Source: Escherichia phage SR02
Sequence record: OQ870566.1
DNA length: 64,000 nucleotides
Direction: 5' to 3' (one strand)
This document shows positions 8,590-23,690 of this stretch, piece by piece (the stretch's first letter is position 1; each line of letters opens with the position of its first letter). Made by a program: the position numbers and the translations under genes. The notes under the pieces were generated by a model. The model searched no databases. It saw only the letters and a program-made list of their open reading frames with translations, and was not told where the DNA came from.

Positions 8590-8805
8590 ATGGAAATTAA
8601 AGTATCTGAACACAAGTATGCAAACATAGAAGATATTAAGAGTGGTGATGTCTTCTCTTACGATAAACGTTTCTGGCTGATGCTAGATGATGATCTCTCT
8701 AATGGACTACGTAGGGCTGCTGATCTAAGCACCGGTCATGTTGGTAACTTCAACCCATCATCCACTGTTATGCCTCGTCCTGATTTGCATTTGACTCAAA
8801 AGTAA
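8590..8805 (+). CDS. small protein, paralog family member
   Basis: IKSGDVFSY ... ADLSTGHV; RBS present. Confidence 0.5.
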   Translation: MEIKVSEHKYANIEDIKSGDVFSYDKRFWLMLDDDLSNGLRRAADLSTGHVGNFNPSSTVMPRPDLHLTQK

Positions 8806-10048: not shown

Positions 10049-10124
10049 GCGCTCTTAGCTCAATGGATAGAGCAGTAGCCTTCTAAGCTATTGGTTACAG
10101 GTTCGAGTCCTGTAGGGCGCACCA
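10049..10124 (+). tRNA. tRNA-Arg(TCT): tRNA-Arg (anticodon TCT)
   Basis: Hand-folded cloverleaf: acceptor GCGCTCT/AGGGCGC, D-arm GCTC/GAGC, anticodon loop CTTCTAA, T-arm ACAGG-TTCGAGT-CCTGT, encoded CCA. Confidence 0.85.
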
Positions 10125-16442: not shown

Positions 16443-17414
16443 ATGTCAATCTCCACAACGATCGTACCTCTGAATCTTCAACAAGATTTAGGGGAACAGA
16501 AGTTCTTAGGTCGTGGGTGCTTCGGTATCCACAACTACATGCAAGGCCAGTGTGTAAATGATATTAATGGTGAAGTTATAACTGAAGAGGGGCGTTATAG
16601 ACGCTTCAACCGTGATATCAACTTGCAATTGGAGATGTTGAATTACTGGACTCACTCTTTTCACGGTCATATTGCATCTGATATTGAAAAGAACTTGGTT
16701 GAAACAGCAGACATTATGAACTCTATGTCTTGCTATCGTGATGTATTTACGATCACTTCAGCGAATAGTGTTGCTGTCAACCTTCGTGAGCATCCAGCAG
16801 ATCAGATCTTCACAGGACTTATGCTCTTCCGTAGTATTCTGGAAGGGCAATATCGTGGAATGGATTTCCTAGCAGAAGGAATTGAAGACAGGGAAGAGTG
16901 GCTGAAGCGTAAACGCATCGGCATCGCTCTAGTGTTAGCTGGGTTGGGTCGTGACTTCTTCGGTGGATGGTCTCAACGAGGAAGAGCCAATGGGAGTAGT
17001 GAGAGCACCTCTATTGTTATTAACAACAATATGTCAGCAGCAGCATTCCTTCCTTTGGTTGTAGACTCTGATGAATACACGAAGCAAGTGTGGGTTCAAA
17101 ACCCCTTCGGTGTTGGCGACAACGAGAATGGTTATGTTCGTAACCATAACCAAGATGCCTTACGAAGATTTGCTCGTGCTAAAGATCAAGACCCGGACGA
17201 GTATGAAACAATGTCAGAGTGGTTAAGACTCTGGTCCAACTGTTATGGTCACAAACGTGAAGCAATAGACGACAAGTTGGGAAACATTACAGTACAAAAC
17301 TTTACAGCCCGACTAATTCAGCGTACTGGTCCAAGCTCTGGCCTTACTACTGAAGAAGTTGGTAACACAATCTCATCTCTCTTTTCTGAACTAGTGGAGT
17401 ATTACAATGACTAA
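16443..17414 (+). CDS. hypothetical protein
   Basis: 323 aa; tightly packed with neighbours. Confidence 0.6.
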   Translation: MSISTTIVPLNLQQDLGEQKFLGRGCFGIHNYMQGQCVNDINGEVITEEGRYRRFNRDINLQLEMLNYWTHSFHGHIASDIEKNLVETADIMNSMSCYRDVFTITSANSVAVNLREHPADQIFTGLMLFRSILEGQYRGMDFLAEGIEDREEWLKRKRIGIALVLAGLGRDFFGGWSQRGRANGSSESTSIVINNNMSAAAFLPLVVDSDEYTKQVWVQNPFGVGDNENGYVRNHNQDALRRFARAKDQDPDEYETMSEWLRLWSNCYGHKREAIDDKLGNITVQNFTARLIQRTGPSSGLTTEEVGNTISSLFSELVEYYND

Positions 17415-18213
17415 GCGCAAATTCCTTATCGGCTCTGACCCTGAAATGTTTGTTCGTACCAGCAATGGTATTATCACCTCTGTGGCTGGTCTGTTAGGCT
17501 GTTCTAAGGACGATAAGATCACTCTGGCTAAGGATGTTCGTCTTCAAGAGGACAACGTACTGGCTGAGTTTGATATTGACCCACAGAGCGGCTTTGAGGC
17601 GTTTAACGATAACATGCAACGTGGTATCGATCTCACCAACAATGTCCTGAACAAACTGGACATGGAAACAGCTCCGGGTGTTAGCTCTCACATCTTCACT
17701 GAAGAAGAGATGAAGACTTTCAACGAATCAGCGTTCATCTTCGGGTGTACTCCTGATTTCAACGCTTTCACTGGTCAGAAGAATCCATCCCCGACTTCTC
17801 AGAATAAAGGGCTTCGTACTGCCGGTGGTCACGTACATCTCGGCGTAGTTGGTGCTTTGGATATTACTTTGCAAACTCAGATGATGCTGGGTGTGCTGTG
17901 TGACTACTTCCTGTCCCTCCCAGCAGTTATTATGGATAAAGATACTCGCCGTAAAGAACTGTACGGCAAAGCTTCTGCAATCCGTTATAAAGACTATGGT
18001 ATTGAATACCGTTCACTGTCTAACTTCTGGATTAGTGATCGTGAAAACCGTAAGTTTGTTTACGATCAGGTTGACAAGGTTGTTCAGCAGTGTGATATGT
18101 CCACTCTGATGGCATTGCACTCTCGCCTTCCGATTGAGAAGCTTCATGAAATCATTAACGGCAACAACGTTAAAGAAGCGGACCAGCAGATCAAACTCCT
18201 TCAGGTAGCATAA
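17407..18213 (+). CDS. amidoligase-like protein (divergent GS-like COOH-NH2 ligase paralog)
   Basis: GSDPEMF and GGHVHLG motifs resemble the amidoligase core; divergent. Confidence 0.45.
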   Translation: MTKRKFLIGSDPEMFVRTSNGIITSVAGLLGCSKDDKITLAKDVRLQEDNVLAEFDIDPQSGFEAFNDNMQRGIDLTNNVLNKLDMETAPGVSSHIFTEEEMKTFNESAFIFGCTPDFNAFTGQKNPSPTSQNKGLRTAGGHVHLGVVGALDITLQTQMMLGVLCDYFLSLPAVIMDKDTRRKELYGKASAIRYKDYGIEYRSLSNFWISDRENRKFVYDQVDKVVQQCDMSTLMALHSRLPIEKLHEIINGNNVKEADQQIKLLQVA

Positions 18214-18222
18214 GAGGTTATC

Positions 18223-18840
18223 GTGAGCTTAGTAGCTGATTTTTCTCATTACTATAATGGTACATGGATTGCTAAACGAGCAGGTAATATCAACCTTCCA
18301 TGTTTTGTGATTGGTGTTGAGCAGAGCGGTAACTTCCGCAGCGATGACTTCTCTCACGAAGCAGAGCAGGCTCTGTATTTTGTTGTAGAGCAGTGGTACA
18401 AGAATGAGCAAGGGAATCTTCGAAACACTACGATGAATATTCCAGTGTTCGACCCAACCTTGATTCTTGAATCACCTGATGTTGGTTATCTGTTCCATAA
18501 CGGTAACACTGTAAGCTGGACTCATATTAACCCTGTTCGTCAGAGAGCAAAGGGTTTGATGGGTAATAAGATTCGAAATGCTCCGGGTGTTGGTCGTGCC
18601 ATCTCCGGGGAGATGGTTTACAGCCTGTTCAATCCTGAATTCGAGGGATTGGTTACTCGTTATATTTACATCAACCCTACTGATGGTAAGGTGCATTATA
18701 AAGGTGCACTGGTAGGACAAGTAGATCTGGAAGCACCTCGTGACTCTTACGGTCAGCAATCAATGCGACTTCTGGAACACTTTCATCACATTTCTGAAAA
18801 CCTTAGCAATTACAATATTACGTTGGTGGATTCGTTATGA
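18223..18840 (+). CDS. hypothetical protein
   Basis: GTG start with AAGAGG RBS. Confidence 0.5.
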   Translation: MSLVADFSHYYNGTWIAKRAGNINLPCFVIGVEQSGNFRSDDFSHEAEQALYFVVEQWYKNEQGNLRNTTMNIPVFDPTLILESPDVGYLFHNGNTVSWTHINPVRQRAKGLMGNKIRNAPGVGRAISGEMVYSLFNPEFEGLVTRYIYINPTDGKVHYKGALVGQVDLEAPRDSYGQQSMRLLEHFHHISENLSNYNITLVDSL

Positions 18841-19940
18841 CAACTGTAGCGCAAACTTTTGGATATCGAGAAGGTCGTTTAACTGAGGCGCATAGTTCAA
18901 TTGCACTTCAGTGCGGTGTCGGTATTGAACTTGAACTCGAAGGTTCCGATCATATCGAAGCAGATATGTGGGATTGTACAGAGGATGGTTCCCTGCGTAA
19001 TGGTTGTGAAATGGTATGTTCACGACCTTACAACGGACAGGAGTTGTTAGACGCTATCAACAACCTGAGTGAAGCAGTAGCTGAATCGCACGCCGAGGGG
19101 ACTTGGCGTTGCTCTACTCACGTTCATATGGATATGAGGGATGCTGATAGTAATATCCTCAAGAAAACCATTCTCGCTTGGACCTTCTATGAAAAGATGT
19201 TGTTCAAGTGTTCAGGCTATCATCGTTACCGTAGCAACTTCTGCCCTGCGTTTGCAGTGGTACAAGCACAGGTAATGAATGCCTCTGACGCATTTAACTA
19301 CGACGATGAAGAGTTCTTCAACCGTCTGGTTCGTTCATGGGATAAGTATACATCCCTGAACCTTCTGCCACTTGCCCAATACGGTTCGATTGAATTCCGT
19401 ATCAGTGAGCCTAAGTGGAAACGTGGTCAACTTCTCAATCTGGTTAACCGCTTCTTGATGTTGAAGAAGCTGGCTTTAGATAACGCAGAGATGAGCAATG
19501 ATCAGTTTATTGAGCATTTAAATACTGTACGATTTGCCCCAATGCTTCCTTACCTTCCTCTGGATTACAATCTGGACGAATCGGATTTGCATTCAGGGTA
19601 TTGTATGGCCCGTGATGTTTTGTATTGCCGTTCTCATGGAGTAGAGCAGTCTGGTCGTATTCGTTTACGTCGAACCAACTCCAACGGAGAAGTTCTTGTT
19701 GACTTACGTCTTATCTCAGACTTCTACGGATTCCTTGGATATGTACGAGGGAACGCTAACAACTTGTACCAAGAGATTCTGGTTATGCTTCGTACAACTG
19801 ACCTATCTACTGTACGATCTGCACCAGAGCAACGTATCCGTGCTATTTTTGACTTACTGCGTGAGTCAGGTCACAGTGATAGCAATATCACAGGGTACAT
19901 TCCAGATCATCTGGAAAATCAGTTAGAGCAAGCGCTGTAA
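18837..19940 (+). CDS. putative amidoligase (glutamine-synthetase-like COOH-NH2 ligase)
   Basis: GVGIELELEG and CSTHVHMDM motifs. Confidence 0.55.
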   Translation: MTTVAQTFGYREGRLTEAHSSIALQCGVGIELELEGSDHIEADMWDCTEDGSLRNGCEMVCSRPYNGQELLDAINNLSEAVAESHAEGTWRCSTHVHMDMRDADSNILKKTILAWTFYEKMLFKCSGYHRYRSNFCPAFAVVQAQVMNASDAFNYDDEEFFNRLVRSWDKYTSLNLLPLAQYGSIEFRISEPKWKRGQLLNLVNRFLMLKKLALDNAEMSNDQFIEHLNTVRFAPMLPYLPLDYNLDESDLHSGYCMARDVLYCRSHGVEQSGRIRLRRTNSNGEVLVDLRLISDFYGFLGYVRGNANNLYQEILVMLRTTDLSTVRSAPEQRIRAIFDLLRESGHSDSNITGYIPDHLENQLEQAL

Positions 19941-20019
19941 TCAATGGGTGCCTCTGATAAAGGGGCACAATTTAAAGGTTAATTAGATGAAAGGGTTTAC
20001 CCTTCAGGTGGATTAGAAA

Positions 20020-22050
20020 ATTTGTGGCATCGTATTAGCTGGCGGTAATCTGTCAAGCACTGATTTAGATGTATTCAACCAACTCTTTTATGCTGGAGTG
20101 TTCCGAGGACAACATTCCTCTGGTATCTTTGGTCAGCGTAAGAGCACTAAGGAAGTCTTCACCTATAAAGAAGCCCTTCCTTCTTTCGCATTCATCCTTC
20201 AAGATGAGTACAAGAAGCACACCACTGGTGAAACAGCTTACACTGTAGCACCTTCATGGATTGTTGGTCATAGCCGTCATGCAACGAAAGGTGCAGTTAA
20301 CGCCAAGAACGCCCATCCTTTCCAACATGGTAACATCACTCTGGTTCATAACGGAACCTTGATGGACCAAGATCTGTTACCTGACAGCAAAAACTTCGAG
20401 GTAGACAGTGAGAACATCTGCCACTCTATTAACACTATTGGTGCAGCAGAGACTATTCAAAAGCTGGATGGTGCTTTCACCTTAATCTGGCATGATGCTT
20501 CTGACAACCGTCTTCATATCATCCGTAACGAAGAGCGTCCATTCCATCTCGCACGTTGTAACAGAGATTGGTTTGGTGCTTCTGAAGAAGACATGTTGAT
20601 GTGGATTCTGAAGCGTTCTAAGTCTCACAAGAACCGTATTGATGAGCACTTTGAATGTAAAGTTGGTACAGAGTATATCTTTGACATGTCAAACAACAGT
20701 ATGACTCTAGTTGAAGAGGTCGCCCACGAGCTTCCGGTTTTTACGGTAATCAATCGTTGGGGCAATTACTACTCGAACAACTACAGCCAAAGCAATTATC
20801 AAAGTTCCTCAAAAAGCAGTACAAGCAATCCTTACGACACGAAGCCGGGAGTGACAGCGGCAGACGTTCGTCGAAGAAACGCAGTGGTAAGTCAAAACAA
20901 AATCGCAAGCGATCGAAACATTGATATTCGCCGCGATATGACTGTGGAAATCACACCACATGAGTTTATTCCTTATGCAACTGCTGGTGCTGTTCCTTCT
21001 CGTGGTAAGATGATCGGTTATATCTACGATGAGAAGTCTCAAGAGTATATCGAAGGTGATGTTCATAACGTAGACATTAAGGCTTATCAGGATGCCCTGA
21101 AAGACCCTAAAATTGTTTACCGTGGGACAGTATCCTGTATCTCCGAAGTTAATGCTATGGTTCGTTTAGTGATCACAGCAGGTCGTTTTGTTGACCCATC
21201 TCTGGAGAAAAAGGAGCCTGAGTCTACTACTGCTGACTTTGATGATGATATCCCTTTTGATATGAATGATAGTTTCGTCAATAAGAATGGCGTTACTATC
21301 ACTCGTAAATTCTGGGAAGCACACTCTCATGGCGATTGCGGTGGTTGTGACAAACACATTGATTGGAAGGATGCACCTAAAGCAGTCTTCGCATATCAGT
21401 GCTATTGGCACCCTGAATGTCTGGAAGGTTTGACTAAACCTAAAGATGAAGAAGAGGAGGAAACTCCTATTGGTGTTTGTGAAATCTGCGGTGAAGTTAA
21501 AACAGAGAACGAGTTCGATGATGAACTTAGTCGTCTTCGTGGTGAAGATATCTGTAAAGTCTGCGCTGTAGATGTAAAGAAGAAAGTATCTAATGCTACA
21601 ATCAAAGATGGTTATGTCTGGATTAAAGCAACAGATACAACAAACGCCCGTCGTCCTGAATTTGCTTTACGTGTAACTGAAGATATGATTGGTCGTATGA
21701 CTGTATTACCTTCCTCAGCGAAACAGACAGGCATCACTCTGGAGGATGTTGTTGACGCTTATGTTGAGAAACGTAGCAACAGTATTTTTGCAATCTCAAC
21801 TAAGCCAAAAAAGGAGGAACCTGCTGAGAAAGCAGGTGTGTTTCCTGAATCACGAACAGCTCTCCGCAAAACTGTTGTCAGCTTCGACGGAAACCGAAGC
21901 ACTGACTTCACCAAAGCCATGTGGTCAACCCTCGGCTACTGCTCAGAGTGTTTTAAGCAGATTCCGTGGCGCGATGCTGAAAGTTGTACGCTTGGTTCTA
22001 TGAATCAAGTTTATTGTAATTCTCCTAAATGTTCATTGAATAGAGGTTAA
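20020..22050 (+). CDS. class-II (Ntn) glutamine amidotransferase with C-terminal Cys-rich metal-binding region
   Basis: CGIVLAGG...RGQHSSGIFG...GHSRHATKG...NAHPF...VHNGT; catalytic Cys codon at 20023 lies upstream of the first canonical start (GTG 20098); start drawn at ATT 20020 with AGGTGG RBS. Confidence 0.65.
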   Translation: MCGIVLAGGNLSSTDLDVFNQLFYAGVFRGQHSSGIFGQRKSTKEVFTYKEALPSFAFILQDEYKKHTTGETAYTVAPSWIVGHSRHATKGAVNAKNAHPFQHGNITLVHNGTLMDQDLLPDSKNFEVDSENICHSINTIGAAETIQKLDGAFTLIWHDASDNRLHIIRNEERPFHLARCNRDWFGASEEDMLMWILKRSKSHKNRIDEHFECKVGTEYIFDMSNNSMTLVEEVAHELPVFTVINRWGNYYSNNYSQSNYQSSSKSSTSNPYDTKPGVTAADVRRRNAVVSQNKIASDRNIDIRRDMTVEITPHEFIPYATAGAVPSRGKMIGYIYDEKSQEYIEGDVHNVDIKAYQDALKDPKIVYRGTVSCISEVNAMVRLVITAGRFVDPSLEKKEPESTTADFDDDIPFDMNDSFVNKNGVTITRKFWEAHSHGDCGGCDKHIDWKDAPKAVFAYQCYWHPECLEGLTKPKDEEEEETPIGVCEICGEVKTENEFDDELSRLRGEDICKVCAVDVKKKVSNATIKDGYVWIKATDTTNARRPEFALRVTEDMIGRMTVLPSSAKQTGITLEDVVDAYVEKRSNSIFAISTKPKKEEPAEKAGVFPESRTALRKTVVSFDGNRSTDFTKAMWSTLGYCSECFKQIPWRDAESCTLGSMNQVYCNSPKCSLNRG

Positions 22051-22052
22051 GT

Positions 22053-22286
22053 ATGGAAATTCGTAAGATGATGCTGGATAACGTTGTAACTACTCGACGT
22101 ATCCCGATGACGAGCACAGGATGTGATAACCTTCGTGCAATCCAGAAGTGGATGCAAGCTGGTATTGGTCAAGTACTTGAGACACAGGTTGAGGTTCCTT
22201 TCCCAACGGTGATCAATAACGTACTTGCTGATTATGTAAAAATCAAAGGCATTAAGGTAGAACCTCATGTCAAATCTGGTTCCTAA
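22053..22286 (+). CDS. hypothetical small protein
   Basis: ATG 3 nt after the amidotransferase stop. Confidence 0.4.
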   Translation: MEIRKMMLDNVVTTRRIPMTSTGCDNLRAIQKWMQAGIGQVLETQVEVPFPTVINNVLADYVKIKGIKVEPHVKSGS

Positions 22287-22493: not shown

Positions 22494-23690
22494 ATGACTA
22501 CTCGTATCCGTGTTCTTCCTTATGGCCCTTCTGATTCAGTTCGTGAACTTACTTCTGCAATTAACACTAAGATTCAGGAACTTCGACTAAATGCTAACGT
22601 AATGTCTCTGGTATCAGAAGGCTCTCGTTATCGTTCTCGTGTTGGTGATATTGTTGTCAACTACGGAAACCGTCGATACAACGACTCTTTCTTTGGTGGC
22701 GCAACTGTGTTGAACTCTGTGGTTGCCTTGAACCGAGCGGCTAACAAAGTTGCAGCATTTAACGCACTGCGTTTAGCTGAAGTCAAAACTGTTGAATACA
22801 CCGTCGATCGTGAAGTAGCTCAGAACTGGAACCGGAATGAAATTGTTTATGAACGTGGAACCTTAACTGGTCACTCTGGAGAAGGTATTACTGTTCGTCT
22901 TACGCGAGAAGGTGTTGCGGATGCTCCTCTATACACCAAAGGCATCCAAGGCCCACGTCGTGAATGGCGTGTTCATGTGTTCGAAGGTGTTATCACTTAC
23001 GTTCAGAAGAAGATTCGTCGTAATGGTTATCGTGAACTGGAAAGTTATCGTGAAGATATTCGTAACCATCACACTGGTTGGGTTTATTCTAACTCCTTCA
23101 CTGAAGCGCCTCCTGATCAAGTTCTTATTCAAGCTCACAAAGCTGTATCTGCTCTGGGTTTGAACTTCGGTGCTGTTGACCTGATTAGCAAAGGTACTAA
23201 CGCATGGGTTCTGGAAGTTAATACAGCTCCGGGCCTGACTGGCACAACTCTGGAAACCTACACTCACAACATCGTTGAGTTTGTTAAGAGTTTCTCTGGT
23301 GTTGATCCTGACTACCGCGTTGCTTACGAACTGCCTGTTGAAGAAGTGGAAGAAGAATTTGCTGAATCGGCAGATGACGAAAACTTTGCATTGGCAGCTG
23401 AGCCAGTTGCTGAAGAGTCTTCGGAGCCTGTTCCTGAAACAATGCAAGTTGAAGAACAAGGGTTAGAGATCAACCCGGTAACCCGTCGTAATCTGCGTCG
23501 TGGTTATTATATCGCTAACATCAAGCATCCTGAAAACGGTTCGACTGTAGCAAGTAACGTGATCTTGTTCTTCTGTGGTCGTAACTTCTACCGCTCTGGA
23601 TGGAACGCACCAATTAGTGATCGTCAGCTTGGTCGTGTGTTGCAGATTAATAGCCTTACCCTGAATGATGGCACTGTTGTAAACTACTAA
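22494..23690 (+). CDS. ATP-grasp family ligase (RimK-like) with acidic C-terminal extension
   Basis: ATP-grasp core including WVLEVNTAPGL. Confidence 0.7.
   Translation: MTTRIRVLPYGPSDSVRELTSAINTKIQELRLNANVMSLVSEGSRYRSRVGDIVVNYGNRRYNDSFFGGATVLNSVVALNRAANKVAAFNALRLAEVKTVEYTVDREVAQNWNRNEIVYERGTLTGHSGEGITVRLTREGVADAPLYTKGIQGPRREWRVHVFEGVITYVQKKIRRNGYRELESYREDIRNHHTGWVYSNSFTEAPPDQVLIQAHKAVSALGLNFGAVDLISKGTNAWVLEVNTAPGLTGTTLETYTHNIVEFVKSFSGVDPDYRVAYELPVEEVEEEFAESADDENFALAAEPVAEESSEPVPETMQVEEQGLEINPVTRRNLRRGYYIANIKHPENGSTVASNVILFFCGRNFYRSGWNAPISDRQLGRVLQINSLTLNDGTVVNY

Follow-up and report, generated by a model that had tools for sequence, protein, structure and literature searches.

Evidence that the class-II glutamine amidotransferase gene of Escherichia phage SR02 starts at an AUU codon

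The window analyzed here, a stretch of 64,000 nucleotides from Escherichia phage SR02 (OQ870566.1), is that of a phiEco32-like Kuravirus, with 96.7% identity to phiEco32 across the 2.4-kb stretch 19700-22100. The neighboring ORFs with Pfam matches lay at 17407-18213, 18837-19940, 20020-22050, and 22494-23690, and the COOH-NH2 ligase, Amidoligase_2, GATase, and ATP-grasp genes were adjacent to each other. The neighbors and their order were the same as in the phiEco32-type amidoligase/GATase/ATP-grasp cluster (PF14395, PF12224), with no cluster-level difference. The full amidotransferase coding sequence occupies 20020-22050 on the plus strand (676 codons plus stop). In the ORF track, this gene starts at GTG 20098 (20098-20100, plus strand) and runs to 22050, and ATT 20020 is in frame with it. 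The junction upstream reads ATG(19987) AAA GGG TTT ACC CTT CAG GTG GAT TAG(20014-16) AAA ATT(20020-22) TGT(20023-25) GGC ATC GTA TTA GCT GGC GGT.

On the plus strand, the junction contains a nine-codon mini-ORF encoding MKGFTLQVD and closed by TAG (19987-20016), which is in frame with the amidotransferase and ends 3 nt before ATT; a Shine-Dalgarno (SD) sequence, AGGTGG (20006-20011), 8 nt 5' of ATT; the ATT codon itself (20020-20022); and, directly 3' of it, the TGT codon of the catalytic Cys (20023-20025), which would be residue 2 of the protein and N-terminal after Met removal. No ATG, GTG, or TTG was found between the in-frame TAG, which begins 6 nt upstream of ATT, and the Cys codon. An earlier note had described the Cys as encoded upstream of any canonical start, right after an in-frame TAG closing a nine-codon upstream ORF, and had placed the SD sequence 8 nt before ATT; the sequence is as described on both points. 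The mini-ORF is preceded by AAAGGT at 19975-19980, 6 nt before ATG 19987, and its AAAGG-N7-ATG context is similar to that of the real gene start at 8590.

The N-terminal ~225 residues of the protein constitute the Ntn glutaminase, and the C-terminal ~450 residues are Cys-rich. Pfam matches were to GATase_6, GATase_7, and GATase_4, and the C-terminal ~450 residues matched no Pfam family and no recognizable synthase or acceptor domain. A single-sequence phmmer search against PDB gave no match, a family profile being required; with the family profile, the protein matched GlmS, PurF, and AsnB. The AlphaFold model had a pLDDT of 92.5 and a pTM of 0.91, and its best Foldseek matches in PDB were the GlmS glutaminase domain, GFAT-1, PurF, AsnB, and EgtC (probability 1.00, TM 0.66-0.75). 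The predicted structure confirmed the Ntn-hydrolase fold of this class-II (Ntn) glutamine amidotransferase.

The first beta-strand of the model begins immediately after Cys2. Cys2-Gly3 and the next 24 residues align to homologues starting with M-C-G-I/L-V, indicating that the K-I-C-G-I-V reading, taken in the earlier note for the amidotransferase N-terminus, is not a chance resemblance. Cys2 was kept in 50/50 family members and in 17/17 database homologues, all of the latter starting with MCG. Among the 50 family members, C2, G3, R29, G30, R86, N111, G112, and D129 were invariant and T89 nearly so; they correspond to GlmS Cys1, Arg26, Arg73, Thr76, Asn98, Gly99, and Asp123, and the profile alignment paired the catalytic-residue region with residues 69-132 of 1xff. 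The catalytic residue set is complete, and glutaminase activity is predicted. The SR02 protein has in common with the Ntn domains of GlmS, PurF, and AsnB the M-C-G-I-V N-terminus, the Arg/Asn-Gly/Asp catalytic set, and the fold, but differs from them in its AUU start and in its Cys-rich ~450-residue C-terminal region with no recognizable synthase domain.

Both annotation and comparison bear on the start codon. In the GenBank and RefSeq records of phiEco32 and in BASEL Bas90 (EU330206, NC_010324, PQ850626), the coding sequence is annotated from ATT, and hence the ATT start is already known at the annotation level; a literature search that covered papers other than the primary phiEco32 ones yielded no mention of the ATT start of this amidotransferase. 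The comparison with homologous phages proposed earlier showed that TAG-AAA-ATT-TGT, with its ATT codon, was kept in 96/96 records containing the junction. The more distant Grimontviridae and Aquaneticvirus relatives have ATG-TGT or GTG-TGT at this position. Initiation at the non-canonical ATT had been one of three options between which the earlier note did not choose, and the comparisons strongly support it as the start of the gene. Moreover, the Cys can be the first mature residue only if ATT is the start.

The SD/anti-SD duplex was of moderate strength (-5.9 kcal/mol, the median of ATG-start relatives being -7.3), and folding predictions have the SD base-paired more often than not; both points count against the AUU model. 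The SD adjoins, on its 5' side, hairpin A (AAGGG-UUUA-CCCUU, 19991-20004, plus strand), a perfect inverted repeat of -5.3 kcal/mol whose 3' end lies 16 nt before the start codon. An alternative hairpin B, GGUUUACC-CUUCA-GGUGGAUU (19994-20014, plus strand; -6.1 kcal/mol), was selected in the minimum free energy (MFE) fold and, as a prediction only, would sequester the SD; in the ensemble fold, the five GGUGG bases of the SD were unpaired with a probability of 0.18-0.38. Further upstream, just past the amidoligase stop codon (19938-19940), a GC-rich hairpin with an 8-bp stem (19948-19968, plus strand) was found in both the MFE and centroid folds. Its stem showed compensatory substitutions between Kuravirus, Suseptimavirus, and Nieuwekanaalvirus; it had no U-tract and was not called in the terminator scan.

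When 10 genomes from three genera were aligned over 1 kb, 56% of the columns were invariant overall, and the longest invariant run was the 55-nt junction TAAAGGTTAATTAGATGAAAGGGTTTACCCTTCAGGTGGATTAGAAAATTTGTGG (19973-20027, plus strand), the next-longest being 14 nt. A search of the window for a second copy or a complement of this 55-mer gave nothing beyond chance, and an Rfam scan of 19700-20300 at E≤1 detected no known RNA family. Sigma-70 promoter and terminator scans detected nothing on the plus strand at the junction, and one non-conserved minus-strand match was observed at 20056-20029. TTTAAAGGTTAAT was considered as a phage-sigma promoter and rejected, being a poor match to the published tAATGTAtA motif; the known gp36 promoters, upstream of genes 6, 13, 26, 40, 58, and 68 (PMC4281155, PMC8948821), also count against it. 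All 55 nt are invariant in Gordonclarkvirinae, although the hairpins can vary in sequence from one lineage to another; this points to a further constraint, for example a site for factor binding or regulation on an early transcript.

Several GenBank records (SGF2, SU7, Paul, and EP335) support another reading, in which translation would begin at a downstream canonical codon such as GTG 20098, giving a Cys-less, non-catalytic protein and leaving the upstream CGIV as a relic. The annotated downstream codons, however, differ among genomes and are unconserved: the codon at 20098 is GTA, GTT, or GTC in phiEco32, Paul, SU7, ECBP2, and EP335, and the GTG of SR02, which is also used in the SGF2 record, is an internal Val codon that differs from these only synonymously. 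In addition, variable columns in the 26 codons upstream of GTG 20098 numbered 6, 4, and 19 by codon position, with synonymous changes exceeding non-synonymous ones; these N-terminal codons are under purifying selection and evolve as coding sequence. With the full catalytic residue set kept as well, we consider a downstream start very improbable, and the earlier remark that a start at 20098 would lose the Cys was correct. The same purifying selection and the conservation of the junction led us to reject a pseudogene. An error of assembly at the TAG or ATT, or a mutation there that recently inactivated the gene, has nothing in its favor except the unusual appearance of the junction; the earlier note had allowed both for the TAG. 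The junction was at least 99% identical in 96 independently sequenced genomes and invariant in the 10-genome, three-genus alignment, which, with the purifying selection, refutes both. The note's remaining option was TAG readthrough, to which bypass of the TAG may be added, giving a propeptide of about 12 residues (MKGFTLQVD-X-KI) that is removed autocatalytically. The mini-ORF is indeed in frame with the amidotransferase, and propeptides exist in some Ntn amidotransferases, such as Bacillus subtilis PurF. However, an open N-terminal extension of this type from a canonical start is absent from the SR02 protein, the frame being interrupted by the invariant TAG, and a sense codon occupied the TAG position in 0/96 records. 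A search of the window for a suppressor tRNA found only tRNA-Arg(TCT), and the ATG-start relatives begin directly with M-C-G without any extension. In other ATT lineages, the frame is closed by a stop 12-78 nt upstream and offers no canonical start. L350, the closest homologue of the start module, has stops in this frame at -6 and -33, and no ATG separates the two. Readthrough is accordingly highly unlikely.

It could also be supposed that AUU 20020 is used mainly by ribosomes that terminate at the UAG after translating the mini-ORF and then reinitiate, as at thrS-infC, translation of the mini-ORF also melting hairpin B. The stop codon lies exactly 3 nt upstream of AUU in both cases (UAA GGU AUU in infC and UAG AAA AUU here), and in infC reinitiation is about equal to de novo initiation (PMC3592434). 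The gene-like ribosome binding context of the mini-ORF, its coverage of the SD and both competing hairpins, and its presence without change in the 96 Gordonclarkvirinae records are consistent with such coupling; the invariance of its ATG carries little weight because all 55 nt are invariant. L203 has an analogous nine-codon ORF ending 1 nt before its ATT, but that ORF has no SD. Against reinitiation, L350 has a nearly identical SD-spacer-ATT module that contains the TAG at -6 in frame, with no upstream ATG and no mini-ORF, and mini-ORFs were not enriched at ATT starts (2/14 versus 8/130). Since the mini-ORF is not conserved in L350, it is probably secondary, and we regard predominant reinitiation as unlikely. 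The upstream ORF with its own AAAGGT, noted earlier, was real as sequence, but the comparison gave no support for its being needed.

We next consider the reading in which AUU 20020 itself is recognized, which we hold to be very probable as a whole, from the AUU start through Met removal and exposure of Cys1 to a codon-limited or codon-conditioned yield and a hairpin within the start module. AGGUGG would position the 30S subunit at AUU 20020, and the initiator fMet-tRNA would decode AUU in vivo despite a mismatch at the third position. As Cys is allowed at residue 2, Met would next be removed by deformylase and methionine aminopeptidase, which would leave Cys1 exposed as the N-terminal nucleophile of the class-II glutaminase. 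Since IF3 discriminates against the weak AUU start, the most likely role of the codon, as in infC and pcnB, is to limit how much of this early-gene enzyme is made or to make its yield conditional; we infer that low or IF3-sensitive expression is the purpose. The short hairpin directly 5' of the SD would be part of the start module. In reporters, expression from AUU was 6-8-fold below that from AUG and was IF3-sensitive (PMC3592434, PMC5499595).

The features by which infC and pcnB are recognized were also found here, namely AUU at the only possible start and conservation of the codon among orthologues (96/96 records). Only two genes of E. coli itself are known to have an AUU start. In pcnB, a single chromosomal case, the AUU start limits expression. 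In both pcnB and the SR02 gene, a weak AUU starts an enzyme that would presumably do harm if made in excess, with no autoregulatory link to translation factors; unlike in pcnB, AUU is seen repeatedly across many lineages of a single phage gene family, accompanied by an SD-abutting hairpin. For infC, with its AUU/AUC start, IF3 discrimination is expected (PMC3592434, PMC5499595); by analogy, the SR02 gene would likewise be sensitive to it, and the AUU/AUC start of E. coli infC is conserved across orthologues, as here. The two differ in that the upstream ORF of infC is a real gene, thrS, and infC is autoregulated by its own product, whereas the SR02 product is an amidotransferase and its upstream ORF has nine codons and is absent from L350.

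To place the SR02 start in its family, we turned to two start-blind samples of the amidotransferase family, in which ATT/ATC was the second commonest start, at ~7-10% of lineages; it outnumbered GUG in both samples and, in the viral sample, the sum of GUG and UUG. Individual lineages had different starts (TTG in L081, ATT in L029, and ATG in L074). In 18 further or related loci, the Cys was preceded by ATT/ATC, and 16 of these loci had an in-frame stop and no canonical start between. Hairpins of 4-8 bp adjoined the SD at the same position in 13-14 of the 18 ATT/ATC-start relatives, and their stem sequences were unrelated and all different. The MFE of the region from -40 to -10 was -6.0 at ATT/ATC starts versus -1.3 (p=5e-5), a statistic designed after part of the data were known and later replicated in an independent metagenome sample (p=0.004); the association also persisted with an intergenic-gap control (p=1e-4). 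SD strength at ATT starts did not exceed that at ATG starts (p=0.43). Several ATT lineages have start modules that look homologous and were apparently moved by recombination at the start codon; the ATT lineages are therefore not fully independent.

In published reporters, hairpins 5' of the SD were mildly inhibitory and not stimulatory (PMC3592434), another point against the model. Our preferred guess is that the hairpin may keep the SD exposed or dock on the ribosome platform, supporting the weak start. We propose, tentatively and with more doubt than confidence, that ATT belongs to a selected, recombination-moved start module (an SD-abutting hairpin, an SD that is often GGAGGAU(U)AG, 3-4 nt, and AUU) which phage Ntn-amidotransferase genes have retained or regained on many occasions and which sets low or IF3-conditioned translation. 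To our knowledge, this recurrent module is new; its function, judged from sequence comparison, is putative. If the proposal is true, the hairpin would have a functional part in determining initiation at weak start codons, and non-canonical phage starts would be far commoner than annotation suggests, the family acting as a natural "ruler" because the position of its start is set exactly by the catalytic Cys. In 96/96 genomes this coliphage early gene has retained AUU, and AUU/AUC occurs in the wider family with a recurring hairpin-SD layout; with the start codon fixed unambiguously by the Ntn Cys, the family offers a clean natural test of the features that allow a non-canonical start to function.

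The gene is started downstream in many Kuravirus-group records (SGF2, SU7, SU10, Paul, and EP335), and its protein is therefore described without the catalytic Cys; the correct model is 20020-22050. In SU10, proteomics detected the amidotransferase protein with nine peptides in a search that used the truncated annotation (PMC4281155).

The window belongs to a phiEco32-like podophage (Kuravirus, Gordonclarkvirinae), and its segment 19700-22100 shares 99.3% identity with Shigella phage SGF2 and 96.7% with phiEco32. The gene encodes a class-II (Ntn) glutamine amidotransferase (Pfam GATase_6, GATase_7, and GATase_4), the family profile of which matches the glutaminase domains of GlmS, PurF, and AsnB. 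An AlphaFold model of residues 1-230 (pLDDT 92.5) gave a predicted fold for which the top PDB matches were the GlmS glutaminase domain, GFAT-1, PurF, AsnB, and EgtC (probability 1.00, TM 0.66-0.75). C2, G3, R29, G30, R86, N111, G112, and D129 were invariant in a 50-member alignment and T89 was nearly so; their counterparts in GlmS are Cys1, Arg26, Arg73, Thr76, Asn98, Gly99, and Asp123. The neighbours are the COOH-NH2 ligase, Amidoligase_2, and ATP-grasp genes (Pfam) of the phiEco32-type cluster. The C-terminal region of about 450 residues (20700-22047) had no family match; it contains three Cys-rich CxxC...CxxC stretches, and shorter homologues carry a single CxxC...CxDC module at the end.

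The earlier note had placed the catalytic Cys codon 5' of any canonical start and just after an in-frame TAG that closes a 9-codon ORF, and the sequence is exactly so. The junction reads ATG (19987) AAA GGG TTT ACC CTT CAG GTG GAT TAG (20014-20016) AAA ATT (20020) TGT GGC ATC GTA, in the reading frame of the ORF that ends at 22050 and for which a mechanical ORF finder chose GTG 20098 as the start. No ATG, GTG, or TTG was found between the TAG and the Cys codon. A Shine-Dalgarno (SD) sequence, AGGTGG (20006-20011), lies 8 nt 5' of ATT 20020, and AAAGGT (19975-19980) lies 6 nt 5' of ATG 19987, which opens a 9-codon mini-ORF (19987-20016).

Among ten genomes of three genera, the 26 codons from ATT to GTG 20098 had 6, 4, and 19 variable columns at codon positions 1, 2, and 3, respectively, and synonymous changes exceeded non-synonymous ones; judged from this alignment, they behave as coding sequence in evolution. 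GTG 20098 is replaced by GTA, GTT, or GTC in phiEco32, Paul, SU7, ECBP2, and EP335, indicating that it is an internal valine codon, and the downstream starts assigned in other records are not the same between genomes. More distant relatives start with ATG-TGT (Proteus P59, Cronobacter GAP52, and Salmonella 7-11) or GTG-TGT (Aeromonas APT65) and have the N-terminus M-C-G-I/L; M-C-G was also found in all 17 homologues from a large protein database. The ATT start is already present in public annotation, the CDS being annotated from the equivalent of ATT 20020 in the original phiEco32 GenBank record, its RefSeq copy, and the BASEL phage Bas90. In the close relative SU10, proteomics found 9 peptides of the amidotransferase, the gene for which is located in the early region (PMC4281155). 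These six lines (the lack of an alternative start, codon evolution, the variants of GTG 20098, relatives, annotations, and SU10 proteomics) indicate that the core of the finding is real. Hence, translation very probably starts at ATT 20020, one of three options in the earlier note, as favoured by the coding-type evolution of the 26 codons, the M-C-G relatives, and the phiEco32 and Bas90 annotation.

The other two options, the ALTERNATIVES of sequencing error or recent mutation and of readthrough with a propeptide, both fail. An assembly error or inactivating mutation at the TAG or ATT was rejected by comparing the junction across phages: positions 19973-20027 showed at least 99% identity in every one of the 96 phage records containing them, with the same 55 nt across three genera. 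Readthrough of the TAG to give a propeptide was rejected on several observations: the sole tRNA gene in the window is tRNA-Arg (anticodon TCT, 10049-10124); no relative replaces the TAG with a sense codon; relatives that start at ATG lack an N-terminal extension; and in L350, a metagenome locus that is the closest homologue of the start module, the frame is closed by stops at -6 and -33, between which there is no ATG.

Start codons across the family were surveyed in 80 loci from a viral contig collection, a sample blind to the start codon because it was drawn by internal protein motifs. The codon before Cys was ATG in about 64, ATT in 10 (five Gordonclarkvirinae and L029, L031, L033, L035, and L064), ATC in 1 (L036), GTG in 1, and TTG in 1-2. 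A pattern scan contributed further loci (L136, L137, L176, L181, L185, L200, and L203). A second, independent sample, of 58 new metagenome loci and likewise blind to the start codon, comprised 48 ATG, 3 ATT, 1 ATC, 3 TTG, and 2 GTG; the remaining locus (L353) was an ATG locus that had been mis-parsed. A long intact ORF was present at all 18 ATT/ATC loci. At 16 of them the frame is closed by a stop codon 6-78 nt upstream, and no canonical start intervenes; in L185 and L203, upstream TTGs in frame are not strictly excludable as starts. Of the 14 ATT/ATC loci in the viral sample, only L181 and L185 failed simple checks for the catalytic motifs, with one or two patterns missing. The ATT lineages are dispersed on the protein tree, each beside ATG-start relatives. 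The window's amidotransferase gene is a further, uncharacterised addition to the AUU-initiated genes already known.

A perfect 4-8 bp hairpin, ending 14-17 nt before the start and abutting the SD, was observed at 13-14 of the 18 ATT/ATC loci, with no two stem sequences alike. It was also observed at two of the three UUG metagenome loci (L362, with a GGAGGATAA variant, and L368), which hints that the hairpin accompanies weak start codons in general. As a criterion-free statistic we used the MFE of positions -40 to -10. Its median was -6.0 kcal/mol in 14 ATT/ATC loci and -1.3 in 130 ATG loci (p=5e-5), with the caveats that the hairpin idea came out of part of the data tested and that the ATT start modules are not fully independent of one another. 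The z-scores against shuffles were -1.6 and +0.3, respectively (p=5e-4). The difference is not due to GC content, since the ATT loci are less GC-rich; it persisted when the ATG controls were restricted to loci with a real intergenic spacer (p=1e-4) and reappeared in the metagenome sample drawn independently (-5.2 versus -1.0, p=0.004). To our knowledge, this recurrent hairpin-SD-AUU module has not been described so far; it is of moderate interest and open to direct test.

A subgroup of the ATT loci shares GGAGGAT(T)AG-N3-4-ATT. L350 (contig Ga0102925_1009287) reads CAGGAGGATTAGAAA-ATT-TGTGGC and the window CAGGTGGATTAGAAA-ATT-TGTGGC, a difference of 1 nt in 24, with proteins only 40% identical; upstream of its ATT, L350 has a hairpin sequence unlike that of the window and no mini-ORF. 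Structure is retained while sequence turns over, whether by covariation in a homologous module or by convergence. In two twin pairs, L203/L294 (99.6% aa) and L064/L060 (96% aa), one member has ATT and the other ATG. Their homology ends exactly at the start codon, with unrelated upstream regions and the recombination joint at the conserved 5' end that encodes CGIVG (near locus position 1501 of L064 and L060), indicating that ATT comes with a swapped-in upstream module and not by point mutation.

Coupling of mini-ORF translation to AUU initiation was also considered. The mini-ORF stop lies 3 nt 5' of the AUU, a spacing equal to that between the thrS stop and the infC AUU, where reinitiation and de novo initiation have roughly equal shares (PMC3592434). 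Furthermore, the mini-ORF covers two nearly isoenergetic, mutually exclusive predicted hairpins, one of which (A, 19991-20004, -5.3 kcal/mol) would leave the SD free and the other (B, 19994-20014, -6.1 kcal/mol) would sequester it; the predicted unpaired probability of the five SD bases GGUGG is only 0.18-0.38. The infC-like spacing and the position over competing hairpins, with the SD predicted to be mostly paired, make coupling plausible. However, L350 carries the same module without any mini-ORF, and mini-ORFs ending near the start were not enriched (2/14 ATT versus 8/130 ATG); we consider coupling an unlikely, minority possibility.

The block 19973-20027 is strictly invariant across Kuravirus, Suseptimavirus, and Nieuwekanaalvirus; in the flanks only 56% of the columns are unchanged, and the second-longest invariant run measures 14 nt. 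All 55 nt are fixed in 96 Gordonclarkvirinae genomes, whereas hairpin sequences vary freely among other lineages. None of coding, a simple hairpin, or the SD could by itself account for so strong a constraint; peptide coding would tolerate synonymous substitutions and a simple hairpin compensatory ones. An Rfam search, a promoter and terminator scan, and a search of the window for a second copy or a complement gave nothing that accounted for the block. One possibility is a sequence-specific factor acting on the early transcript.

Literature searches, which did not extend to the two primary phiEco32 papers, found no paper discussing the ATT start. In many records, among them those of SGF2, SU7, Paul, SU10, and EP335, the gene is truncated and the catalytic Cys lost; the EP335 record (L004, MG748548.1) names the amidoligase 'L-glutamine-D-fructose-6-phosphate aminotransferase-like' and labels the real, truncated amidotransferase hypothetical. 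In phage vB_EcoP_YF01 (OQ025076.1), the match to 19700-22100 is in two pieces and has an annotated HNH endonuclease gene beneath it, suggesting that a homing endonuclease has inserted beside or inside the amidotransferase gene.

A GC-rich hairpin (19948-19968) immediately follows the amidoligase stop, and compensatory changes between genera preserve its stem; lacking a U-tract, it does not qualify as a classical terminator. A minus-strand sigma-70-like match (TTGACA-16-TACGAT, 10/12, 20029-20056) within the 5' end of the gene is probably due to chance, because its bases are not conserved in SU7 or ECBP2. In the same cluster, the upstream gene starting at 16443 has an AT-rich 7-bp hairpin with its 3' end 11 nt before the ATG.
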